DNA of 64,000 nucleotides, taken from Octopus vulgaris (Eukaryota). How positions within the stretch are numbered: the first letter of the stretch is position 1; each line of letters begins with the position of its first letter. The stretch lies in NCBI GenBank assembly GCA_951406725.2, contig OX597819.1, positions 45,074,001 to 45,138,000 of the forward strand, written 5' to 3'. Below the pieces are notes generated by a model. It ran no database searches and was not told the origin of the DNA. It saw only the letters and a program-made list of their open reading frames with translations. Of this stretch, positions 4,070 through 62,966 are shown one piece after another. The position numbers and the translations under genes are program-made.

Positions 4070-4797
4070 AAATATAAATAATATATAAATATATGCATAT
4101 ATGCATACATATATGTTCATACTTACATATATATGTATATATACATGCATATATGGGTACAGGTCATCAAAAAAACGTGACACAATGAGAAACGAAAACA
4201 TAAAAACAAAAACATAGAAAACGAACTTTTTTCGAATATCGAAAAAACAGAAAAAAAAAAACAGGCAACATAAAGAACATTCCCCATTCATCAGTTGTCC
4301 CTGTTTTATCTATTCCGCGGTCGAAGGCAAGGACAAGACGCGATTTCGTTAAAGCAGTTCTTTCCGCAAAGCAAGTTAAATAAAATTTGGGATTTTTTGC
4401 GGAAGATGAAAGTGGTAACAAAAACAGGACAGTGAGAGCTTGACAGTAAAAACAAACGGTGTGGGCTGTTATGCCAAAAGGATGTGAAGATTATGGACGT
4501 TAGAACGACGAGCTGTGAGAACAGACAAGTAAAAGCACGTCTTGTCTTTATGAAGGAAGTGGAAGAAAGAAATATAGATGGCCTTTCGTCACGTGTCAGC
4601 AACGAGAGAGTCAAGGAGGAAGAGTGACAGACAGAGGGAACGGTGAAGGGGAGAGGAGGAGAATAGGGTAAAAGTGATGACCAAAAACAGGACAGAGCAA
4701 GACAGTAAAAACAAACGATGAGGGCTATTAAGCTAAAACGATGTGAAGATTATGAACGCTAGAATGACGAGCTTTGAGCAGAGACAGGTAAAAGCAT
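4070..4797. mobile_element. Non-coding interspersed repeat (same family as arms of the 15.8-16.2 kb foldback) with internal diverged ~115-bp direct repeat
   Basis: 4143-4300 aligns by eye to 15840-16010; 4419-4537 is repeated imperfectly at 4682-4797; (TA)n-rich flanks. Confidence 0.6.
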
Positions 4798-9589: not shown

Positions 9590-9932
9590 ATTCTTCCATA
9601 CGTGTACATAAACGCGTGCATCTGATTGTGTGTATATGCCCATATACTTGGATGTGCGTGTGTGAGCGCTATGCATATGTGCGTCTTACACGAACACAAA
9701 AAATATTTGTCTAAATATTTTCTTCCTTTCAACGTCTACTTTTTCTTTCTCTTAACACACCAGCGAAAGCTCATTACGTCATTTTCTCTAAACTAGAATC
9801 TATACTTTCCACGTTCATATTTGAAGTTTTTCCTTTCACTAAATTTTCTGTTTCTACTCATACTCGAAATTGACGGACATATAGCTGTACGTAAGCCGAC
9901 TGAAGAAATCTCTAGTGAGACGTTTTATTGAT

Positions 9933-9982
9933 GTACCTGAAGAGACCCCGAATGGGTCGAGACATGTGATGTACCTAATAAA
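9933..9982 (+). ncRNA. Degenerate minimal hammerhead ribozyme followed by AATAAA
   Basis: gtac-CTGAAGA-gaccc-cgaat-gggtc-GAGAC-atgt-gat-gtac. GAAA is mutated to GAGA and the cleavage triplet is altered. Confidence 0.55.
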
Positions 9983-10296
9983 GTCTATTATATATTCCAT
10001 CTTCTAGTTTATTAATACTATACACACTCGCAAGTATGTAGTTGAAATTTGCAGAAAAGCAAAAGACGAAAACAGCTTTATAAACAAGCAGGTGTATTAG
10101 TTTCACGCTCGGGACGGTGAGAATGTCTTTTACTTTTCGAACCTACGCTCTTCAAGAGAGAAGAACAGAAGTATATAAACAAAGAGCGAATAAAAAAAAA
10201 ACTTGTGGATGTAGCAATCAATCATAGCAACTGGTAGAAATATATATATATATATATTGTGAAGGAAATCTAATTCTCGCCGACAACTATGATTGT

Positions 10297-10341
10297 CACA
10301 CGCTGACGAGAGGTCAATACCTCGAAACTCGAGTCCGTGTG
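10297..10341 (+). ncRNA. Minimal type I hammerhead ribozyme, copy 1 (predicted cleavage after C10335)
   Basis: cacacg-CTGACGA-gagg-tcaata-cctc-GAAAC-tcga-GTC-cgtgtg: perfect stems I and II, full core, palindromic loop III. Confidence 0.92.
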
Positions 10342-10648
10342 TATCATAAGTTGAAGACGGGAAGGATGACTTCCCTTTGCAAATACTGACAGGACACAGA
10401 AAGTGTGTCTATGGCCAGCTGGAGGAGTGTGTCCTCCTGGGGCTAAAAACTACAGTAGCATCCACCCTTAGGGGTAGCCATATTGAGATGGCAAATATAC
10501 GTCACGATGTGTTACCGCTACTGTATATAACTCACTTTGATATTTATCATTGTTTGATTTCACTTTTTCAATATCAGCGACAGTGGACGCTGGAAAAAGT
10601 ATAATTATTTGTGAAGGAAATCTAATTCTCGCCGACAACTATGATTGT

Positions 10649-10693
10649 CACACGCTGACGAGAGGTCAATACCTCGAAACTCGAGTCCGTGTG
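10649..10693 (+). ncRNA. Minimal type I hammerhead ribozyme, copy 2 (predicted cleavage after C10687)
   Basis: Identical to 10297-10341. Confidence 0.92.
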
Positions 10694-10879
10694 TATCATA
10701 AGTTGAAGACGGGAAGGATGACTTCCCTTTGCAAATACTGACAGGACACAGAAAGTGTGTCTATGGCCAGCTGGAGGAGTGTGTCCTCCTGGGGCTAAAA
10801 ACTACAGTAGCATCCACCCTTAGGGGTAGCCATATTGAGATGGCAAATATACGTCACTATATATATATATATATACCGA

Positions 10880-11180
10880 AATTGTGAAGTATATTTGCCA
10901 CCTAAATGTGGTTGGCCCATATGGGACGATGCTACTGTAATTTATAGCTCTAGGAAGACGTCTCCTCCGGCTGGCTAACAACACACTGTCCGATTAGTAT
11001 TTGCGATAGGAATTCATCATACCCACCTCTAGACTGACGTGATACACAGGGATCCGGGTTTCTGCGTAGTAACCCGTCATCAGCATGTGATAATCACCAG
11101 CTAGTGATGAGAAGTGATTTCGAACGCAAAGTACTATATGCTTTTTTCCAGTGAAAAAAGTCACTGATCTCGAAAAAGGA
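10880..11180 (-). mobile_element. Diverged inverted copy of the ~350-bp HHR unit; degenerate HHR at 11045-11089
   Basis: Minus strand reads cacatg-CTGATGA-cgggttactacgca-GAAAC-ccgg-ATC-cctgtg and shares TACAGTAGCATC and GGCAAATATACTTCAC with the 10.3-kb unit. Confidence 0.8.
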
Positions 11181-12357
11181 GAAACAAGCAATAATAAATC
11201 TCTGAGCCAGATGTAAAGAGTAGCTATAAACTACAATAGCATATATAACAGAAATATACAGTAGTATATATAACGGAAAATATACATCTAAAACGCAGCT
11301 GTTTTCCGACTTGTGGTACGCGTCTCTAAAGAATAATATGACAAGACAATAATATTATCAGTTCCAAGATTTAACGGCATCGGATTGCCTCCAACAGAGT
11401 GAAATAACCGTAATAAATGTGTATATGTTGGGTTGGCTACACACACACACACACAGAAACAAGCATATACATACATACCCCCCACACACACACACATATG
11501 TACGTATGCTGCTCCAGATTATTCTTGATCGAGACATCCTATAACAGAAAAGCATTTTGATCGTGGCCATCGCGTCTTTTTATTAGCATTAAGGAACGCT
11601 GAACAGATGTCATGTCCCTTCAAGACAATTGGTCATGACATTAGTAAATTTTACTATTATTTATTGGCAAGCAAAGATCTACGTTAGTGGCACTGCCTCG
11701 TCGATTCTATGTCTATGTTTGTATGTTCCGACGTCGTTAAACAAATATTAAATCATTAAGTCCGCATTACTCACTATTACCATTTGACTACTAACCTCGA
11801 TAAAATATTCAAATTGCTGCACTAAAACATTCTTTTGTAATTTTTCATAGGACGGCAGAAAAAAAAAATTATGAAATGCCATGACATTGTAACTGCATTT
11901 CACAGAAGCCTTGATTTCCTAAGCTTATATATACTATTGGCTTCGGTTCAGTCCCACTGCAATGCGCCTTGACAAGTGTTTTGTTCCATGGTCCCGAGTG
12001 AATTTGTTAAAGAAAGTCTCTCGTTCTTCTTCTTTCTCGAACTTACTCTCTCTGTATATCTATATATGCAAAAGTGAGAATGTGTGCCTCTCTTTCTGTC
12101 TGTATGTGTGCATCATAGGTTTTACTCATGCCTTACTTAGGGTCCATGCAGTGTTATGGACAATGCAAGTAATCTCTTATCTCTTCCCCTATTGCAGTAT
12201 TACGTGTAGAAAATGAAAGAATAACATATCTATTGTAACGTGAGACAATAATTTCAGTTTTAATACTTTCAGAATGTTTGTAATATATACATACTGAAAC
12301 TATTATCTCACTTACATATATATATTTGCACGTGTATATATGTGTATATAGATCTGA

Positions 12358-15738: not shown

Positions 15739-15771
<33 letters not shown>

Positions 15772-15773
<2 letters not shown>

Positions 15774-16236
15774 TGTAATAATTAAAATATATGCATACAT
15801 ACAAACATATATGTACGTATCTACATCTACATGTATATATATACATGCATATATAAATATATATACGTGTGTACAGGACACCACAAATAGACGTAGAACT
15901 CAATGAGAAACGAAAAAGTAAAAACGGCATGGAACGGACCATTTTTTAACAACGAAAAAACAGAATACAAGACAACTACACAAGGAAAAATCCCCTTCAT
16001 CAGCTGTCCCTAGTTCAACTCCAGCGTGTTTCGAAGGGACAGCTGATGAAGGGGATTTTTCCTTGTGTAGTTGTCTTGTACTCTGTTTTTTTCGTTGTTA
16101 AAACTTTTTCGTTTTTCCTTGAGTTCTACGTCTATTTGCGGTGTCCTGTACACACGTATATGCATGTATATATACATGTAGATGTAGGTGCGTACATATA
16201 TGTTTGTATGTATGCATATATTTTATTTATTACACT
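15772..16236. repeat. Long inverted repeat (foldback), arms ~200-240 bp, ~25-bp spacer
   Basis: 15772-16010 is the reverse complement of 16036-16236 with few mismatches and two indels. Confidence 0.9.
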
Positions 16237-16585
16237 ATTGTATGACTGAGCGTCCTCGCGTCGATTCGATTCGATTCGTTTGGTTTCGTTTCGTTTCTTC
16301 TTCTTCTCTAACCGGGTTATATATATATATATATATATATATATACAAATATATATATATATATTAATATATATACATACAAATATATATATATATATAT
16401 ATATATTAAATAATATATTTATAAGTATATATATAATTCATTAAAAAATTCATATGAAAATTAATATCATGTATGAAGTTATTTTTGGTTTTGCTTTTAA
16501 ACTATCGAGGAAAGAGAGCAATAGTGAAAATAGTTGAAGTTGTTCTAATACAATAAAAATAACAACTTAGAAGAATATATTAAGC

Positions 16586-21054: not shown

Positions 21055-21594
21055 GAAACCCACAACTAACGAATAGCAACAAGAAAAACTAAGTTTGTGC
21101 TTATGTAACAAATCAATATTTATTCTGTTCATTTGCTTGATTCATTATCTGATGATCTTTGTGCGCTTGCCAACTTGTTTGTTTGCTATGTTTCCTATTT
21201 GATTTCACGGATATCAATTAACGGTTTACCTTTTGTTAAGTGGAACTTTCTCTGTGATACTGATATTCAATGTAACAGGTGTTAGAAAGAAGAAGTAATA
21301 GTAACATACAAAAACAAAACAAAAAATTTTAAAGGCCTGGTTAGACTAGTGAGGGAGAAAGAGAGAGAGAGAAAAAGAGAGATGGGGGAGTGAAATAAGA
21401 CGTTTGATTATTAACGTGGGAGCGTGAACAAATATGTCTGTTTATTTGTACTAAACACTTGTATAATCTTGAGCATAAAGATAATAGAAAACAAATTCAG
21501 CAACAAACATACGCCTACGCCCGAATATAAACATGTGTGTATGCAAGTATGAATGTATGTAAAAGATGTCTACATATATGTGTGCGTGTTTGTG

Positions 21595-21640
<46 letters not shown>

Positions 21641-21642
<2 letters not shown>

Positions 21643-21900
21643 TGGCACTCCGTCGGTTACGACGACGATGGTTCCAGTTGATCCGATCAACGGAACAGCC
21701 TCCACAGACACGTGTACCCTTAACGTAGTTTACGAGGAGATTCAGCGTGACATACAGGCTGACAAAGTAAGCCCTTTGAAATACAGGTAGAACAGAAATA
21801 GGAAAAAAAGAGTGTGAGAAAGAAAGTTGAGGTGAAAGAGTACAGCAGGGTTCGCCACCACTCTCTGCCAGATTCTCGTGGAACTTTAGGTGTTCTCTAC
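21641..21900 (-). mobile_element. SINE family C variant, 3' part (repeated at 24389-24646)
   Basis: GGCACTCCGTCGGTTACGACG...ACACGTGTACCCTTAACGTAG is the reverse complement of the family C tail. Confidence 0.8.
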
Positions 21901-22515
21901 CAGATAAGTAAAAGCTAGATAACCAAAAACAATGAACGAAAGTGAAATATCGACTCCAAAAAGTGTAAAGTTGACCTTCGTGGTATTTGAGCCCAGAATT
22001 CAGTGAGTCGGAAAGGTAACAACCAGAAAGCAAAATATCTACCTCTCTGACAACTCGTCCAAATGACTGCCTATGAAGCTGAACTCAAATAAAGAGAAAT
22101 ACAAGAGAAACAAACAAAATTCTGTTGATAATTTTCGTAAGTCAATGATCTGAGATCAAATCTTGCTGGGGTCTATATTTTATATAACTTTTCTTCAGAA
22201 AGAAGCTCCATGATCATGAATTTTGCAAATGTTCCAAAACAGGTGTAACTGATAGGGTTAATACTACATTTGAGCTATTCCAAGTGGATGACCGCAGATG
22301 AGACATGCGGCAGAACAGGGGAGACATTTTTAAGTAATGGTGTTCTGTAAATACTTATTATTTCATGCGGCCTATCGTCAGAGGGGTCACAGTATAGGTA
22401 TCAAGACGATTACAAATGAGCAAGTAAAAAGTGTCTAAACAGATATCGAACAAGACTTGTTCACACACATACAGAAAAAAAACCTCTATGCAACCAAATG
22501 AATATGTATATGTGT

Positions 22516-22580
<65 letters not shown>

Positions 22581-22786
22581 AGTATGATGATAGTTATGCA
22601 TGTACGTATGTATGTATAAGTTTATACACACAGAGACACACAGATGCACACACGCACACACAAACACACACATATATACATATACATATATATGAGTGTA
22701 TTGTAGTTCGCATGAAGCATTGAGTATTGTTTGTAAAGAATAAAAAGTATTCAATGGTATAACAATGCACTATAATACATAAATAC

Positions 22787-22811
<25 letters not shown>

Positions 22812-22854
<43 letters not shown>

Positions 22855-24159
22855 ATAACACTCTAATGGGAGCCTTAACTCCCAAATTTTAGTCATTTCG
22901 TTTATGATCCAAACTAGGTCAAAAGTACTGAATGTATCTTTAGGAAATTTGGAAATTATATTCTATGCATAAGGGCCATAACCCCCATGACAATTCATAT
23001 ATTTTTGCTGTTGATGAAATTTTAACCATATATATTAGACACAAATGAAGTAATATTTATAAAATTTCATCTTCTTACAAAGTTAGAAAGACCCCTCCAT
23101 GCACAATTTTGTCATTTTATATAAGCAAAAACGAATACAGTAGTGCTCTTGGAAGCTGTAGGGTTACCCGATCATAAAAGTTGGGTAGTATTTCTAATTC
23201 AATGGTACAACAGTGTAACAGTTTGCTTTGACATACACTTACATTGTGATTTCTGCAATGTGTTGCATAAATTGTCAAGTAAATTAGAGGCATATTTGCC
23301 TCCACTGATTCAGTTGCAAAGTGTTGAGTAACTTTATTTGATTGCAGACCTCCTTTCAGTCTTTTTGTTATCACTCGGTCACACATAGTCCCCAGATGGT
23401 AACATTGATTTCAAGGCCTTGCCAGATGAGTGACTGATTATTCAAAGACATTTATAGATTTTAAATTTATCCAGTCCAGTTACGTATCAGCATAGTGGTC
23501 ATCTGCAAACTCCAGAGTTGTCACTTTAATTTCTCCTTAGCCCTCACGTCACATAGTTGTTAATGTTTATATCAGTTGGGTCACGCCGTTCCAATTGCTA
23601 TAGGTTTGTAATGCATCTTACGGCTGTGCCTGTCACCTGGATGGTTAGGAATCCTACATTGGGAGTGGTAACGACTAGGGCAGGGTAACTGACTGCTTAT
23701 TGTGATCATTTGTCTTTTGGTTCCCTGTAGCTTTGCTCTCTTTTACAACCCCAGTGAACATATATTTCCTATTTCAAAGAAATTCAAACAATAGATATAA
23801 GACCCAAGTTAAAAGATTTTCAACAATTTTACTTATCTGGTTGACATTAAGACGCCCACCCCCAACAGGGGCCTTAACTCTCACATTTTAGAGCTCCATG
23901 ACCTTCATTTTTCAGGAGCAAAATCTTTTTAACAGGTTCAATAAGACTGAAATTTTGGAATATGCGCATAAAAATCAGTAGTATGGGATACATGTGGCAC
24001 GATTACAATTTTTTAGGGTGTGTAAAGAGGGAAATAACCCTGATCTGCAATTTTGATGAAATTCGAAACATAGATATTCTAGTTCATTACAGAAGATATA
24101 ACAGAAAAGTCTAATTCTTCAATTGAATGTAACCGGGCAACGCCGGGTATCTCTTCTAG
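22812..24159 (+). mobile_element. Probable non-autonomous Helitron (3' end clear, 5' boundary uncertain); duplicated copy ends at 26900
   Basis: Ends with a CCGGGCAACGCCGGGT hairpin followed 7 nt later by CTAG|T, a classic Helitron 3' terminus. Confidence 0.65.
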
Positions 24160-24342
24160 TATATATATATATAATTAAGTTTTCTTACAAATTATATATA
24201 TAGATATATATAATTAAGTTTTTATATATTANNNNNNNNNNNNNNNNNNNNNNNNNNNNNNNNNNNNNNNNNNNNNNNNNNNNNNNNNNNNNNNNNNNNN
24301 NNNNNNNNNNNNNNNNNNNNNNNNNNNNNNNGCGTGTTTGTG

Positions 24343-24390
<48 letters not shown>

Positions 24391-25262
24391 TGGCACTCCG
24401 TCGGTTACGACGACGATGGTTCCAGTTGATCCGATCAACGGAACAGCCTCCACAGACACGTGTACCCTTAACGTAGTTTACGAGGAGATTCAGCGTGACA
24501 TACAGGCTGACAAAGTAAGCCCTTTGAAATACAGGTAGAACAGAAATAGGAAAAAAGAGTGTGAGAAAGAAAGTTGAGGTGAAAGAGTACAGCAGGGTTC
24601 GCCACCACTCTCTGCCAGATTCTCGTGGAACTTTAGGTGTTCTCTACCAGATAAGTAAAAGCTAGATAACCAAAAACAATGAACGAAAGTGAAATATCGA
24701 CTCCAAAAAGTGTAAAGTTGACCTTCGTGGTATTTGAGCCCAGAATTCAGTGAGTCGGAAAGGTAACAACCAGAAAGCAAAATATCTACCTCTCTGACAA
24801 CTCGTCCAAATGACTGCCTATGAAGCTGAACTCAAATAAAGAGAAATACAAGAGAAACAAACAAAATTCTGTTGATAATTTTCGTAAGTCAATGATCTGA
24901 GATCAAATCTTGCTGGGGTCTATATTTTATATAACTTTTCTTCAGAAAGAAGCTCCATGATCATGAATTTTGCAAATGTTCCAAAACAGGTGTAACTGAT
25001 AGGGTTAATACTACATTTGAGCTATTCCAAGTGGATGACCGCAGATGAGACATGCGGCAGAACAGGGGAGACATTTTTAAGTAATGGTGTTCTGTAAATA
25101 CTTATTATTTCATGCGGCCTATCGTCAGAGGGGTCACAGTATAGGTATCAAGACGATTACAAATGAGCAAGTAAAAAGTGTCTAAACAGATATCGAACAA
25201 GACTTGTTCACACACATACAGAAAAAAAACCTCTATGCAACCAAATGAATATGTATATGTGT

Positions 25263-25319
<57 letters not shown>

Positions 25320-25521
25320 AGTATGATGATAGTTATGCATGTACGTATGTATGTATAAGTTTATACACACAGAGACACACAGATGCACACACGCACACAC
25401 AAACACACACATATATACATATACATATATATGAGTGTATTGTAGTTCGCATGAAGCATTGAGTATTGTTTGTAAAGAATAAAAAGTATTCAATGGTATA
25501 ACAATGCACTATAATACATAA

Positions 25522-25595
<74 letters not shown>

Positions 25596-27327
25596 ATAAC
25601 ACTCTAATGGGAGCCTTAACTCCCAAATTTTAGTCATTTCGTTTATGATCCAAACTAGGTCAAAAGTACTGAATGTATCTTTAGGAAATTTGGAAATTAT
25701 ATTCTATGCATAAGGGCCATAACCCCCATGACAATTCATATATTTTTGCTGTTGATGAAATTTTAACCATATATATTAGACACAAATGAAGTAATATTTA
25801 TAAAATTTCATCTTCTTACAAAGTTAGAAAGACCCCTCCATGCACAATTTTGTCATTTTATATAAGCAAAAACGAATACAGTAGTGCTCTTGGAAGCTGT
25901 AGGGTTACCCGATCATAAAAGTTGGGTAGTATTTCTAATTCAATGGTACAACAGTGTAACAGTTTGCTTTGACATACACTTACATTGTGATTTCTGCAAT
26001 GTGTTGCATAAATTGTCAAGTAAATTAGAGGCATATTTGCCTCCACTGATTCAGTTGCAAAGTGTTGAGTAACTTTATTTGATTGCAGACCTCCTTTCAG
26101 TCTTTTTGTTATCACTCGGTCACACATAGTCCCCAGATGGTAACATTGATTTCAAGGCCTTGCCAGATGAGTGACTGATTATTCAAAGACATTTATAGAT
26201 TTTAAATTTATCCAGTCCAGTTACGTATCAGCATAGTGGTCATCTGCAAACTCCAGAGTTGTCACTTTAATTTCTCCTTAGCCCTCACGTCACATAGTTG
26301 TTAATGTTTATATCAGTTGGGTCACGCCGTTCCAATTGCTATAGGTTTGTAATGCATCTTACGGCTGTGCCTGTCACCTGGATGGTTAGGAATCCTACAT
26401 TGGGAGTGGTAACGACTAGGGCAGGGTAACTGACTGCTTATTGTGATCATTCGTCTTTTGGTTCCCTGTAGCTTTGCTCTCTTTTACAACCCCAGTGAAC
26501 ATATATTTCCTATTTCAAAGAAATTCAAACAATAGATATAAGACCCAAGTTAAAAGATTTTCAACAATTTTACTTATCTGGTTGACATTAAGACGCCCAC
26601 CCCCAACAGGGGCCTTAACTCTCACATTTTAGAGCTCCATGACCTTCATTTTTCAGGAGCAAAATCTTTTTAACAGGTTCAATAAGACTGAAATTTTGGA
26701 ATATGCGCATAAAAATCAGTAGTATGGGATACATGTGGCACGATTACAATTTTTTAGGGTGTGTAAAGAGGGAAATAACCCTGATCTGCAATTTTGATGA
26801 AATTCGAAACATAGATATTCTAGTTCATTACAGAAGATATAACAGAAAAGTCTAATTCTTCAATTGAATGTAACCGGGCAACGCCGGGTATCTCTTCTAG
26901 TATATATATATATAATTAAGTTTTCTTACAAATTATATATATAGATATATATAATTAAGTTTTTATATATTATGTACTTCACAATATATGGGTTGTATTA
27001 AGACGTACCCATTGCAAGCTAAATCGAAAGGTAAGGGAAGGAACATGGCTAGGCAATCGATAGGAATACCAAAGCGTAATTTATAGCACGCAACGAAATA
27101 AATATACATATAAATTTATATAAATAAATGAATAAAATTGCATGCAAAATTACATGTGAAGACTATGCATTATGTACGTTGGCTTCACATACCATTCGGT
27201 ATGTGAACCCATCGTACATGATATATAGTTTTTACATATAACATTTATATTTATTTCGTTGTGTGCTCTAAATTATGGCTTGGAATTTGGATCTATTGCC
27301 TAGATGTTTTCCTTCTATAATTTCTCT

Positions 27328-31112: not shown

Positions 31113-31519
31113 GTAGTTGCACGACAATATGAAGTATATTTGCCAGTGGCAAATATACTTCACATTGTCTTGCAGCTACTGTGTATGCCTCGTTTAGTGA
31201 TTTACTATGGCCTGTTTACACTTTTTCGAGACCAGTGACTTTTCGTCACTGGAAAAAGGATATATGTATTTGCATTGGGACCCCTTCACATCGAAGACTG
31301 GTGATTGTCGTGCGTTGACGACGGGTAAAAATCCAGAAACCCGGGTCCGTGCGTATCACGTCAGGTCGCCGACGGGAAGGATAGCTTTCCTTTACAAATA
31401 CTGATATGGCACAGAAAGTGTGTCAATAGCCAACTGAAGATGTTCTCCTGGGGCAACAAGCTACAGTAGCATCCACCCTTAGTGATTAGCCACATTTAAG
31501 TCACAAATATACTTCACAT
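31113..31519 (+). mobile_element. Single ~354-bp HHR unit with 16-bp terminal redundancy and ~33-bp inverted 5' tail; HHR at 31309-31353 (C3>U)
   Basis: cgtgcg-TTGACGA-cgggtaaaaatcca-GAAAC-ccgg-GTC-cgtgcg; CAAATATACTTCACAT at 31150 and 31504; 31113-31145 is inverted relative to 31147-31180. Confidence 0.8.
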
Positions 31520-31745
31520 ATATATACATATTTATCAATCAATCTATCTATGTTCGCATAAATTTTACCGTGTATATCACGAAACACACACACACATGCA
31601 CTCTCACACACACACAAACACCGCGCACACAAACAAACACAAACAAACACAATTCATAAATCTATATTACGTAAAAAATATATATGTATCATACGTATAA
31701 AGGGTATATATGATACATAAAACATCTATCCATATATATATATCA

Positions 31746-33435: not shown

Positions 33436-33496
<61 letters not shown>

Positions 33497-33682
33497 TAGT
33501 TGAATGAATTATCTTAGTATAGATAATTCGGTTAACCGATACCTGGGTAGCAAATTCACGTCAGAAAAACACGGTTGAAGCTACATGCCAAGGGCAGAGA
33601 TCACGTGCTTTCGTGTGGAAATTTGTGTGTTTTTTTAATACAAATAAATGAAAGAATGGAGTTGAACGACGATTTAACAAAA

Positions 33683-33781
33683 TTCCTTTATTCTCGACAT
33701 ATGTTTCGAGGGCTGCATATTCCTAATTTCGAAGGAATAAGGGGTGCATTATGCCGCCTTCTCATCAGGAAAAACAAGGAA
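33683..33781 (-). ncRNA. Type I hammerhead ribozyme with extended stem II, intact core
   Basis: ttccttgtttttc-CTGATGA-gaaggcggcat...atgcagccctc-GAAAC-atat-GTC-gagaataaaggaa, within a TA-flanked insert (33493-33856). Confidence 0.85.
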
Positions 33782-33853
33782 CTTGTGTCAGCATCAAGAT
33801 GAACAAAAACTTTTAGATGACTGCCCACACGGAGCCCATAGCGGAGCCCATAG

Positions 33854-33892
<39 letters not shown>

Positions 33893-33934
33893 CATATATA
33901 TGTGTATATATATATGTGTATGTATGAATGTATG

Positions 33935-33975
<41 letters not shown>

Positions 33976-34099
33976 AAATGGATAAGAAATATAGTGGATA
34001 CTTAGTTAATTTTATATGTATCACGATGAAAAAACGTAATACATATAAGATTTGAGATTTAAAGGTATAGAATCAACAACAGAACTAAACGTAAAAGAA

Positions 34100-34210
34100 T
34101 CCTACATATGTTTCAATCCGGCCATTAAGTTCATATTATGACTATGACCGACCATTCAAGCAGTGTTAGATGTAAAATAATCCCACATTATGTCCGGATA
34201 TCATCAAGGA
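34100..34210 (-). ncRNA. Hammerhead with extended stem II, core C3>U
   Basis: tcc-TTGATGA-tatccggacat...atggccggatt-GAAAC-atat-GTA-gga. Confidence 0.7.
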
Positions 34211-34729
34211 GCATGTTTACTTTCTGGTGATGAACAGCGAAATAACTAAGATGAGGACCGTATTTTCAAATAACATCACGTGATCACTTGACCGACCAGG
34301 CCATCAGATTTTGCTACACATCGCTTGTCACAATGCGCTTCGCATTGTTTTAGCCTTCATAGACGCCACCCGCTGGCTAAGCGAGCAGGCCAACAGAAGA
34401 AAGAGTGAGAGAAAATTGTGGTGAAAGAGTACAGCAGGGAGTATATGTATATGTATATGTATATATATCTATATGTATAGATATATATATTTACATCTCA
34501 ATCTTTTATAATAAAAATTAGACGAAAGACAGGCAAAATATAACACCCTATATTGGATTACCTATAAATTAAATTATATATATACATATATATATATATA
34601 AATAGATAGATATATATAAGTATATGTATATGTATATATGTATGTATGTATACGCAAGGTGACATGCAGTGGAACTGAACCTGGAACCATGTAGTCGGGA
34701 AGAGAGAATATTTATGCGAATCCCAGCTT

Positions 34730-61573: not shown

Positions 61574-61685
61574 TGATATTTCGCTTCGGCTTATATATAT
61601 ATATATTAATTTAGAGATAGTAGGCCCTTTCATCTCACCATATAAAAAATAATTTTTATTTTAAATACCTACTGTTTTTTAACTT

Positions 61686-61782
61686 GGCTACACGTGTTTC
61701 ATGAGGTGTGCATTCCTCGGTTCCTAAACCACTCCGTGTTTTGCTGGAACCGTTCTTAAAATGTAACCCCAGTCATCAGGCC
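61686..61782 (-). ncRNA. Type I hammerhead ribozyme with extended stem II, intact core
   Basis: ggc-CTGATGA-ctgggg..cggttcc...ggaaccg..cctcat-GAAAC-acgt-GTA-gcc. Confidence 0.8.
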
Positions 61783-61799
61783 CTTATATCCAATAGTTA

Positions 61800-62070
61800 G
61801 AATTTGATCCGGACCTGTTTTCGGAGGTCATCTCTCGTGACGAAAACTGGTGCGACGGAATTTGCAGATGTGGTAGAGGGGAAGAAAAAACGAGTGAGGC
61901 GTTAAAATGGCATCACTTCGCAAGAGTTCCAGCACTGCTTTTTACAGTGACAAACGCATCTGGACCGATGCATTGCTTCAACTGGAGAATACTTTGAAGG
62001 CGATAAAAGTGTAACAATGTAGACCAATTGAATAAAATAATATTGCAAAATCCTGGTTTCTTTGGTGTAT
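61800..62070 (+). mobile_element. Internally deleted mariner remnant
   Basis: EFDPDLFSEVISRDENW joined to ITSQEFQHCFLQ*QTHLDRCIASTGEYFEGD (mariner C-terminus). Confidence 0.7.
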
Positions 62071-62271: not shown

Positions 62272-62275
<4 letters not shown>

Positions 62276-62966
62276 TAATACTAAGCAATTAAGGGTTTAG
62301 CAACGAATTGCCTTACCGCACACCGAATTTAGAAATAGCAGTCAAAGAGATTATAGCTATTTCTTCTACTAAAAGGGAGATCTCAGTAAAAACACAGCAT
62401 TTGAAAGGCAAACACAAACAGGTAAGAGAGAATGAATTGACGGCAATCTATCATACAGTTTTAAGTCACCTACGGACGTACGTTTCGAAATCAAGTCTTA
62501 GGAAAGCATAAGAATTAGATAATTCTACCTTACCCAAACTTCTTCTCTCATCAGCGCAGGATACAAACAATCATGAATGATTGTATATTGAATTTTGAGA
62601 TACTAGAAGGCACCAACTCAACTCAGTATCAGTGCGAGCTAGAAGCCACAACTAGTATCACCAAATTCAAAGTGTGAATGAAAGTTTGTGTCACCAGTCC
62701 CTTCCCACCCGCGTGTAGCCAAGACAAAGTGCTGTGGTCATTTACTGGGATGAATATGGTTATCAGTAACAATGAAGGGTGAAATTAATTAATTTGGAAT
62801 AATTATCAATTACACCAAGTAGTCTTCGGCATGTAAAAGCCTCATTCGAGGAAAATTTAAGTAATACTAAGCAATTAAGGGTTTAGCAACGAATTGCCTT
62901 ACCGCACACCGAATTTAGAAATAGCAGTCATTCCTCGAATGAGGCTTTTACATGCCGAAGACTACT

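Follow-up and report, generated by a model that had tools for sequence, protein, structure and literature searches.

A type I hammerhead ribozyme motif with an extended helix II in a repeat fragment, probably of a Penelope-like element, in the Octopus vulgaris genome

The hammerhead motif described here lies on the minus strand at positions 33683..33781 of a 64-kb stretch of Octopus vulgaris DNA (hereafter, the window), which is AT-rich and filled with microsatellites (159 tandem-repeat rows). It is carried by a repeat fragment of about 360 nt, flanked on both sides by (TA)n runs and present as a single copy within the window. The features of this locus are listed below, each with its basis.

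33856..33972, no strand: (TA)n-rich microsatellite on the 5' side (tandem-repeat scan)
33494..33856, minus: repeat fragment with the ribozyme, probably 5'-truncated, a putative terminal repeat of a Penelope-like element (PLE) ((TA)n bounds; contigs in three runs)
33830..33855, minus: 12-nt tandem duplication at the 5' junction, period 12, 2.2 copies, 100% (tandem-repeat scan)
33769..33790, minus: stem I 5' strand, with 5 proximal bp, a 2x2 internal loop (33774-33775) and a distal helix (pairing; variants cluster at 33773-33774)
33762..33768, minus: the catalytic core's first half, C3-A9 (sequence; no variant among the rows listed)
33751..33761, minus: stem II 5' strand, G10.1 first (pairing and folding)
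33739..33750, minus: unpaired 12-nt stretch with a second ATGC competing for the stem II strand in this copy (folding; four variable positions)
33719..33738, minus: inner hairpin, for which relatives show two registers, with a non-conserved internal GAAA (33730-33727) (relatives' variants and folding)
33708..33718, minus: stem II 3' strand; pair 3 is broken by a base at 33710 that is private to the target copy (variants in three runs)
33704..33707, minus: second half of the catalytic core, G12-A15.1 (sequence)
33697..33704, minus: 8-nt palindrome that would form a minimal stem/loop III or, in a dimer, a helix III of 8 bp (predicted self-duplex -7.0 kcal/mol versus +1.7 kcal/mol for the monomer hairpin)
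33696..33698, minus: cleavage triplet GUC, predicted cut between 33696 and 33695 (hammerhead consensus; Rfam alignment)
33675..33695, minus: stem I 3' strand, including AATAAA at 33692-33687 (pairing and folding)
33493..33529, minus: 3'-terminal 9-bp hairpin (33529-33506) and terminus TACTTA entering (TA)n (sequence, folding)
33438..33494, no strand: (TA)n microsatellite on the 3' side, 201 nt past the cut (tandem-repeat scan)

The complete minus-strand core claimed by an earlier sequence-only reading of this DNA was confirmed. Indeed, CTGATGA (33768-33762), 54 nt, GAAA (33707-33704), CATATG and TC follow one another, the triplet GTC (GUC) occupying 33698-33696, so that CUGANGA, GAAA and UH of the type I hammerhead core are all found in order. 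The pairs G10.1-C11.1 and A15.1-U16.1 are present, and no extra base stands between 9 and 10.1 in this copy. Position-by-position pairing also agrees with the stems as first read: stem II (33761-33751 with 33708-33718) is paired at 9/11 positions, with mismatches A33759.C33710 and G33755.A33714, the inner ATTCCT/AGGAAT hairpin at 6/6, the core halves are separated by 54 nt, and stem I (33781-33769 with 33683-33695) is paired at 11/13, one pair being G-U; this last helix can be extended by about 8 more pairs, to 33790/33675. Since the 12 nt at 33750-33739, between stem II and the inner hairpin, are unpaired, helix II is a bulged arm and not a plain rod. As a pseudoknot partner for this bulge, the best candidate gave -7.2 kcal/mol in a broken helix and was discarded. 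Stem III has only 2-3 bp, and A15.1 to U16.1 form a perfect 8-nt palindrome, which the earlier reading had missed. Stem I has an internal loop, a short loop II is missing, and a G.A mismatch follows stem II pair 6, which could substitute for loop II docking. The three helices surround the core, with helix I open, and form in the majority allele, poorly in the copy in the window. On its sequence, we regard the target as a real type I hammerhead motif of the Penelope-associated kind.

The AATAAA that the earlier reading had placed just after the cut is indeed there, 4-9 nt past the predicted site (33692-33687), while a role as poly(A) signal was rejected: the motif occurs 153 times in the window, is not found at this place in the three other long-stem hammerheads described below, and the AU-rich flank belongs to the published consensus, with AATAAA following stem I in at least two rows of a published alignment (PMC4209133). 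In the Anolis PLE an ORF begins inside the ribozyme; the corresponding one here was also considered and discarded, being only 25 codons long.

Three other hammerheads with a long stem II were retrieved in the window by descriptor, and are named here by position.

34096..34214, minus: hammerhead 34207, 86-nt insert, palindrome shared with the target, C3-to-U change, GUA triplet
61686..61782, minus: hammerhead 61779, 72-nt insert, triplet GUA
62469..62560, minus: hammerhead 62554, 61-nt insert, GUC, in a unit of about 590 nt with partial tandem, inversion and a tail of about 40 nt

In all three, the insert is helical from its base and a 6-nt palindrome then follows; the folding z-scores of the three inserts tested were -1.9, -2.8, and -1.9. 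The four long inserts share no significant sequence likeness, and the core is perfect in three of the four hammerheads. Each of the four has a (TA)n run 83-201 nt downstream, as do 26% of positions. Hammerhead 34207 (33971-34440, minus) is 440 nt upstream of the target on the same strand, with one (TA)n run between; a cross-dimer of the two ribozymes was rejected, for they have the same palindrome and their stems I, by inspection, do not cross-pair. Hammerhead 61779 (61605-61860, minus) has a stem I of only 3 bp, and unpaired bases flank its helix II as in Hydra-clade PLE hammerheads.

The non-coding unit of hammerhead 62554 (window 62273-62966) has TACTT before (TA)n at both ends. It includes a 76-nt partial tandem and an inverted piece, its second end coming about 40 nt further on. 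This unit and the target have the same 201-nt spacing from cut to end and the same terminus: TACT precedes only 3/288 (TA)5 run ends, namely that of the target locus and the two of this unit. Their alignment was not significant (75 versus 60 +/- 7, maximum 88), and their possible kinship is suggested by common terminus and spacing instead.

Short-stem type I hammerheads are also found in the window, at 10247-11224. Flanked by (TA)n runs, the cores at 10303 and 10655 (plus strand) form a partial tandem of 352 nt, after which comes an inverted copy that has diverged, its core at 11083 being degraded; another diverged copy lies at 31147-31535. As far as the sequence tells, this is the classical retrozyme/PLE layout.

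A strict descriptor, composed after the target match had been seen, found 4 sites in the window, against a mean of 0.01 and a maximum of 1 in 300 block-wise dinucleotide shuffles (200-nt blocks); once the 6-nt palindrome was added, 0/300 shuffles matched. A relaxed descriptor found 6 sites in the window and none in 60 shuffles. The bare motif of core and spacing was matched by 111 stretches, 109 from metagenomes and 2 viral, with full flanks examined for 80 of the 109; 0/111 had both stems, and the target-family motif had no match in the metagenome contigs. A chance origin of the target hammerhead is thus excluded. The best metagenome match (L073:1501-1568, with 11/13 stem I pairs) lies inside a bacterial ORF and is a chance hammerhead-like motif.

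The comparison with Rfam that had been suggested gave an end-to-end alignment of the target with the Hammerhead_1 model (RF00163), skipping 50 nt of helix II and scoring 22.6 bits (E 0.0019 in 191 nt), below the cut-off of 34; the scan of the whole window returned 0 hits, and at E<=1 no match was found for hammerheads 34207, 61779, and 62554. A local search of 551 nt around the target was flooded by (TA)n matches. The minimal descriptor of Cervera and De la Pena (2014; PMC4209133) accepts a stem II of 3-7 bp, a loop of 3-10 nt, at most 26 nt between core halves and no insert in helix III, in keeping with the short stem II that the earlier reading gave for minimal PLE hammerheads, and it leaves out the target for its 54-nt insert and 4 extra nt in loop III. 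Likewise, the core search of Craig et al. (2021; PMC8557442) allows 7-17 nt, while their methods mention eight Naiads with core halves 35-50 nt apart. None of the four long-stem-II hammerheads of the window is retrieved at the Rfam cut-off or by the minimal descriptor as published (<=26 nt). Given these limits of 26 nt or 7-17 nt, the earlier inference that standard searches may miss such an architecture is right. The length of helix II is only part of the cause for Rfam, since the short-stem hammerhead of the window, with 32.2 bits, is also under the cut-off.

The sequence of the target shares with RF00163 all core nucleotides, the G10.1-C11.1 and A15.1-U16.1 pairs, the GUC and the open stem I, and differs in having no short loop II for the classical loop-loop contact. 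With the metazoan PLE hammerheads described in PMC4209133, it has in common a small helix III that is palindromic, a U-rich 5' flank and an AU-rich 3' flank, an enlarged helix II and mostly solitary dispersed copies; however, their helix II has 6-8 bp and a short loop, whereas the target has 54 nt and a longer stem I. A precedent is PLE-X1_sMoe of a spike moss (PMC8557442, File S2), with 1+9+35+9 = 54 nt between core halves as in the target, although it is a plant, endonuclease-less, rDNA-targeting element, flagged as deviant, for which no sequence relation to the target was seen. The Hydra-clade animal entries of the same File S2 all have a short helix II. A link with an octopus Naiad or Hydra element was set aside, as three 11-12-nt stem III motifs are absent from the Craig supplement, where line breaks could hide matches, and Naiad_Ovul, compared by eye with the target, shows no likeness. 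The discontinuous Clec2 hammerhead (PMC6155905) indicates that a large peripheral-helix insertion, such as that of the target, is compatible with a natural hammerhead; unlike the target, it is a type III with 150-1500 nt inserted in helix I, domesticated in a 3' UTR. In our literature search, long-helix-II hammerheads in animal PLEs were not found; arms of this kind may already be described in the Lunse et al. survey or the Terminon paper.

Of the 24 listed runs, 20, from 9 studies and 5 organisms, contained half or more of the words sampled from the target family, with no RNA run listed among the 24. Contigs were aligned to the target fragment for four of these runs: X4 (organism C), X8 (D), X7 (A), and X24 (A, raw reads). 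Covering contigs numbered 1562 in X4, 750 in X8, and 21 in X7, a depth which is not a copy number; X24, consisting of raw DNA reads under the same label A as the top-ranking run, with about 3% of the run sampled, gave 0 reads matching the fragment. Most of the covering contigs are 90-99% alike, so the target belongs to a diverged multi-copy family. Upstream of 33841, two contigs continue into different sequence, and one go-back joint was found in 2333 contigs aligned to 362 nt, a length over which a longer unit would hide its junction. The depth of related contigs at 33651-33702 (covering stem III, the 3' strand of stem I and the 45 nt downstream of it) is 5-10 times that over stem II, so several subfamilies share that part and differ in helix II; some of them have other loop III palindromes and a GUA triplet.

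The data on variants come from 40/48 substitution rows, 18/151 loose ends, and 24/2357 pieces. The whole insert is spanned by 7 of the 24 listed contigs (of 2357), 5 of them gap-free, and no indel falls inside the ribozyme among the rows listed. Hence, the long stem II is a family trait; the target is not a minimal motif, and its 54 nt have a precedent in the spike-moss element (PMC8557442). The base at 33710 is the pairing one in about 100% of the covering depth in X4, X8, and X7; therefore, the mismatch of the target at pair 3 is private. The other stem II mismatch is restored by 33755 in 27% and 19% of depth (X4 and X8, respectively). A G-C to A-U change involves 33757 (50%/22%) on one side and 33712 (31%/14%) on the other. 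Their depth in X7 is 8.79 for both, equal to that of record 13, all 8 differences of which are explained, and from these depth values both sides appear to be on one contig, which also shifts the inner hairpin to its second register. Conversely, single changes that break pairs were found at 33758 (37%/19%), 33757 (second allele, 16%/9%) and 33773 (46%/44%). The variant in loop III retains dimer pairing. Among the loose ends, 18 of 151 listed, we found a subfamily with the same ATTCC/GGAAT hairpin and a different 3' half.

Overall, 5 of the 18 listed substitutions break pairs, two of them being common (33758 and 33773), and 3 restore pairs. Placed on the structure as first read, the 18 score a net -2 against -8.2 +/- 2.0 for random placement (P about 0.005), an allele-level comparison and not a covariation analysis. 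The same test was not significant for stem II alone (P=0.14), nor for the 12 core positions, none of which is substituted among the 18 (P=0.09). The pair-restoring variants prove an ancestral helix, not current selection.

The 116-nt target region is stable (folding z of -3.4), and for this copy a fold other than the hammerhead is predicted, in which the stem II 5' strand pairs with stem I and the second ATGC replaces it. The stem II pair probability is at most 0.22 in this copy, and in the majority form (which matches X7 record 15) nine of ten stem II pairs reach 0.94-1.0; the private base at 33710 thus lowers the predicted formation of stem II from >=0.94 to <=0.22. The hammerhead that the sequence-only reading called intact is so for its core only, stem II being a minority fold in this copy. 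Record 13 gave about 0.95 and record 14, whose fold rests on its 8 known in-range differences, at most 0.1; among three inferred haplotypes, one has no stem II fold and another loses the proximal stem I. In all four forms folded, the active-like fraction of the monomer was below 1%, and the short-stem hammerhead of the window scores still lower. For this reason, and because nearest-neighbour energies ignore tertiary contacts, these fractions rank the forms and do not predict activity.

We consider it probable that the target belongs to a PLE family that inserts into (TA)n and carries, close to its 3' end, a type I hammerhead with a long and bulged helix II; the locus would be a solitary 5'-truncated copy. 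The context of the family is PLE-like, with dispersed multiple copies, a 3' end on (TA)n and a hammerhead near that end; PLEs have been described as having a 30-40-nt tail and a preference for (TA)n. The arrangement of partial tandem, inverted piece and tail, described as unique to PLEs, is absent at the target locus and present, with a tail of about 40 nt, in the 62554 unit. Neither the target fragment nor that unit contains an ORF, and the Pfam scan of 150 of the 209 window ORFs gave none reaching the cut-off and one sub-threshold unrelated match. With no reverse transcriptase or GIY-YIG ORF linked to the target, either in the fragment or in those 150/209 ORFs, the PLE identity is circumstantial.

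In metazoan PLEs, hammerheads have a short palindromic helix III, cleave poorly and act as dimers (PMC4209133), and that of the Anolis PLE is reported to require the protein of the element and to be dispensable for insertion in vitro. Judging from known PLE and newt-type hammerheads, a stem III of 2-3 bp would be too weak alone, so we propose that, when a transcript contains two copies in tandem, their palindromes pair with each other, giving an 8-bp helix III and a double hammerhead; the palindromic stem III points to such cleavage as a dimer. The paired copies would cut after the GUC at 33696, possibly helped by the protein of the element, and release a 3' piece of about 200 nt ending in the terminal hairpin. 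More tentatively, the basal 6 bp of helix II may be all that serves the core, the distal part being a tolerated extension, and docking on the internal loop of stem I, in place of loop II, may be done by the mismatch that follows pair 6. The target copy itself is probably inactive or silent, because it is solitary and its private base favours the misfold.

Compatible with the PLE reading is the possibility, which we hold only tentatively, that the extension of helix II is a functional domain, either a folding switch or a protein-binding site keeping the ribozyme off until a retroelement protein binds. The competing fold through the second ATGC would suit a switch, yet this ATGC is changed at 33746 in 16-18% of depth and loses to stem II in the majority form. 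The inner ATTCC/GGAAT hairpin is kept in two registers and in the related subfamily, three of the four long inserts consist of 6 bp, a break and then a CAT/ATG helix (a regularity spotted after the fact), and the Anolis hammerhead reportedly needs a protein. However, the four inserts, 54-86 nt long, share no significant sequence, and nothing in the element makes a good partner for the bulge. A non-autonomous non-LTR retrozyme or SINE-like element of about 350-600 nt, making circular RNA and attached to no coding parent, of which the target would be a dispersed monomer with the same ribozyme action, appears unlikely. Such retrozymes (PMC7229834; bioRxiv 10.64898/2026.07.22.740005) are, like the target, non-coding, a few hundred nt long and equipped with a type I hammerhead with weak helix III; they are argued to derive from PLE terminal repeats, their monomers of 330-390 nt fit the size of the target, and solo monomers are common. 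The lack of an ORF in the target fragment and in the 62554 unit and the short-stem pair at 10303/10655 go in the same direction. Nevertheless, retrozymes are defined by tandem arrays and circular RNA, whereas no head-to-tail tandem was seen for the target family: the window holds a single copy, the only go-back joint in 2333 contigs comes from an alignment that would miss longer units, and the two contigs continuing upstream do so in other sequence. Moreover, the target does not have the short loop II of classical retrozyme hammerheads, and no Pol III promoter (A box) or tRNA head was found on its unit, nor any tRNA gene in the window.

It is quite improbable that the motif is a dead relic, i.e. 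an ordinary short PLE hammerhead whose loop II acquired an insertion, and which was amplified passively once inactive. The common pair-breaking variants, the non-significant constraint tests on core and stem II, and PLE transposition in vitro, which does not need cleavage, would be coherent with it; against it, four unrelated families within 64 kb have long helical inserts, three of them with perfect cores, the inserts are paired from the base, and the overall placement of variants departs from random (P about 0.005). Finally, we give almost no credit to a chance match, or to a true ribozyme using the internal GAAA, with a 31-nt insert and five Watson-Crick closing pairs. Although this alternative register exists and the predicted fold of the target copy is not a hammerhead, the shuffles and the 0/111 stretches with both stems speak against chance, and the internal register has no workable stem III and was rejected on the variants of the relatives, in which the second base of this GAAA is changed in 38-70% of depth.

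The target, read as a PLE hammerhead, reveals no new chemistry, and its long helix II has a published precedent. Through its family, the dependence of PLE hammerheads on loop II contacts, on a partner copy or on protein could be examined in a natural setting. Counts of animal hammerheads rest on descriptors and models with a short helix II; since 4/6 hammerheads in one window escape them, such counts and the statements that an element lacks a ribozyme may be too low and too many, respectively. With four unrelated long-helix-II families against one short-stem family in 64 kb, it is conceivable, if rather doubtful, that hammerheads of this type form a major class so far left out of the counts for this animal lineage, and that in them a paired extension, interrupted by an internal mismatch, takes the place of loop II as a module for docking or for control by protein. 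If so, some PLE families called hammerhead-less or "half core" would hold working ribozymes invisible to descriptors.

Other elements were observed in the window. A degraded, short-stem hammerhead-like remnant lies at 9925-9985 (plus strand), with CTGAAGA, a 5-bp hairpin and an altered GAAA, followed by AATAAA. An inverted-repeat pair at 15770-16238 and 4288-4294 carries a GCAG/ACAG-CTGATGA half core with no clear second half; on sequence, this family could be a Naiad-type end; the half-core context is similar at the 3' end of Naiad_Ovul as published. A direct duplication of 2.65 kb (21584-24231 and 24332-26972, 99.5% identity) is either a recent tandem duplication or an assembly artefact, and an 18-nt minisatellite of 6.8 copies at 904-1028 is GC-richer than its surroundings.
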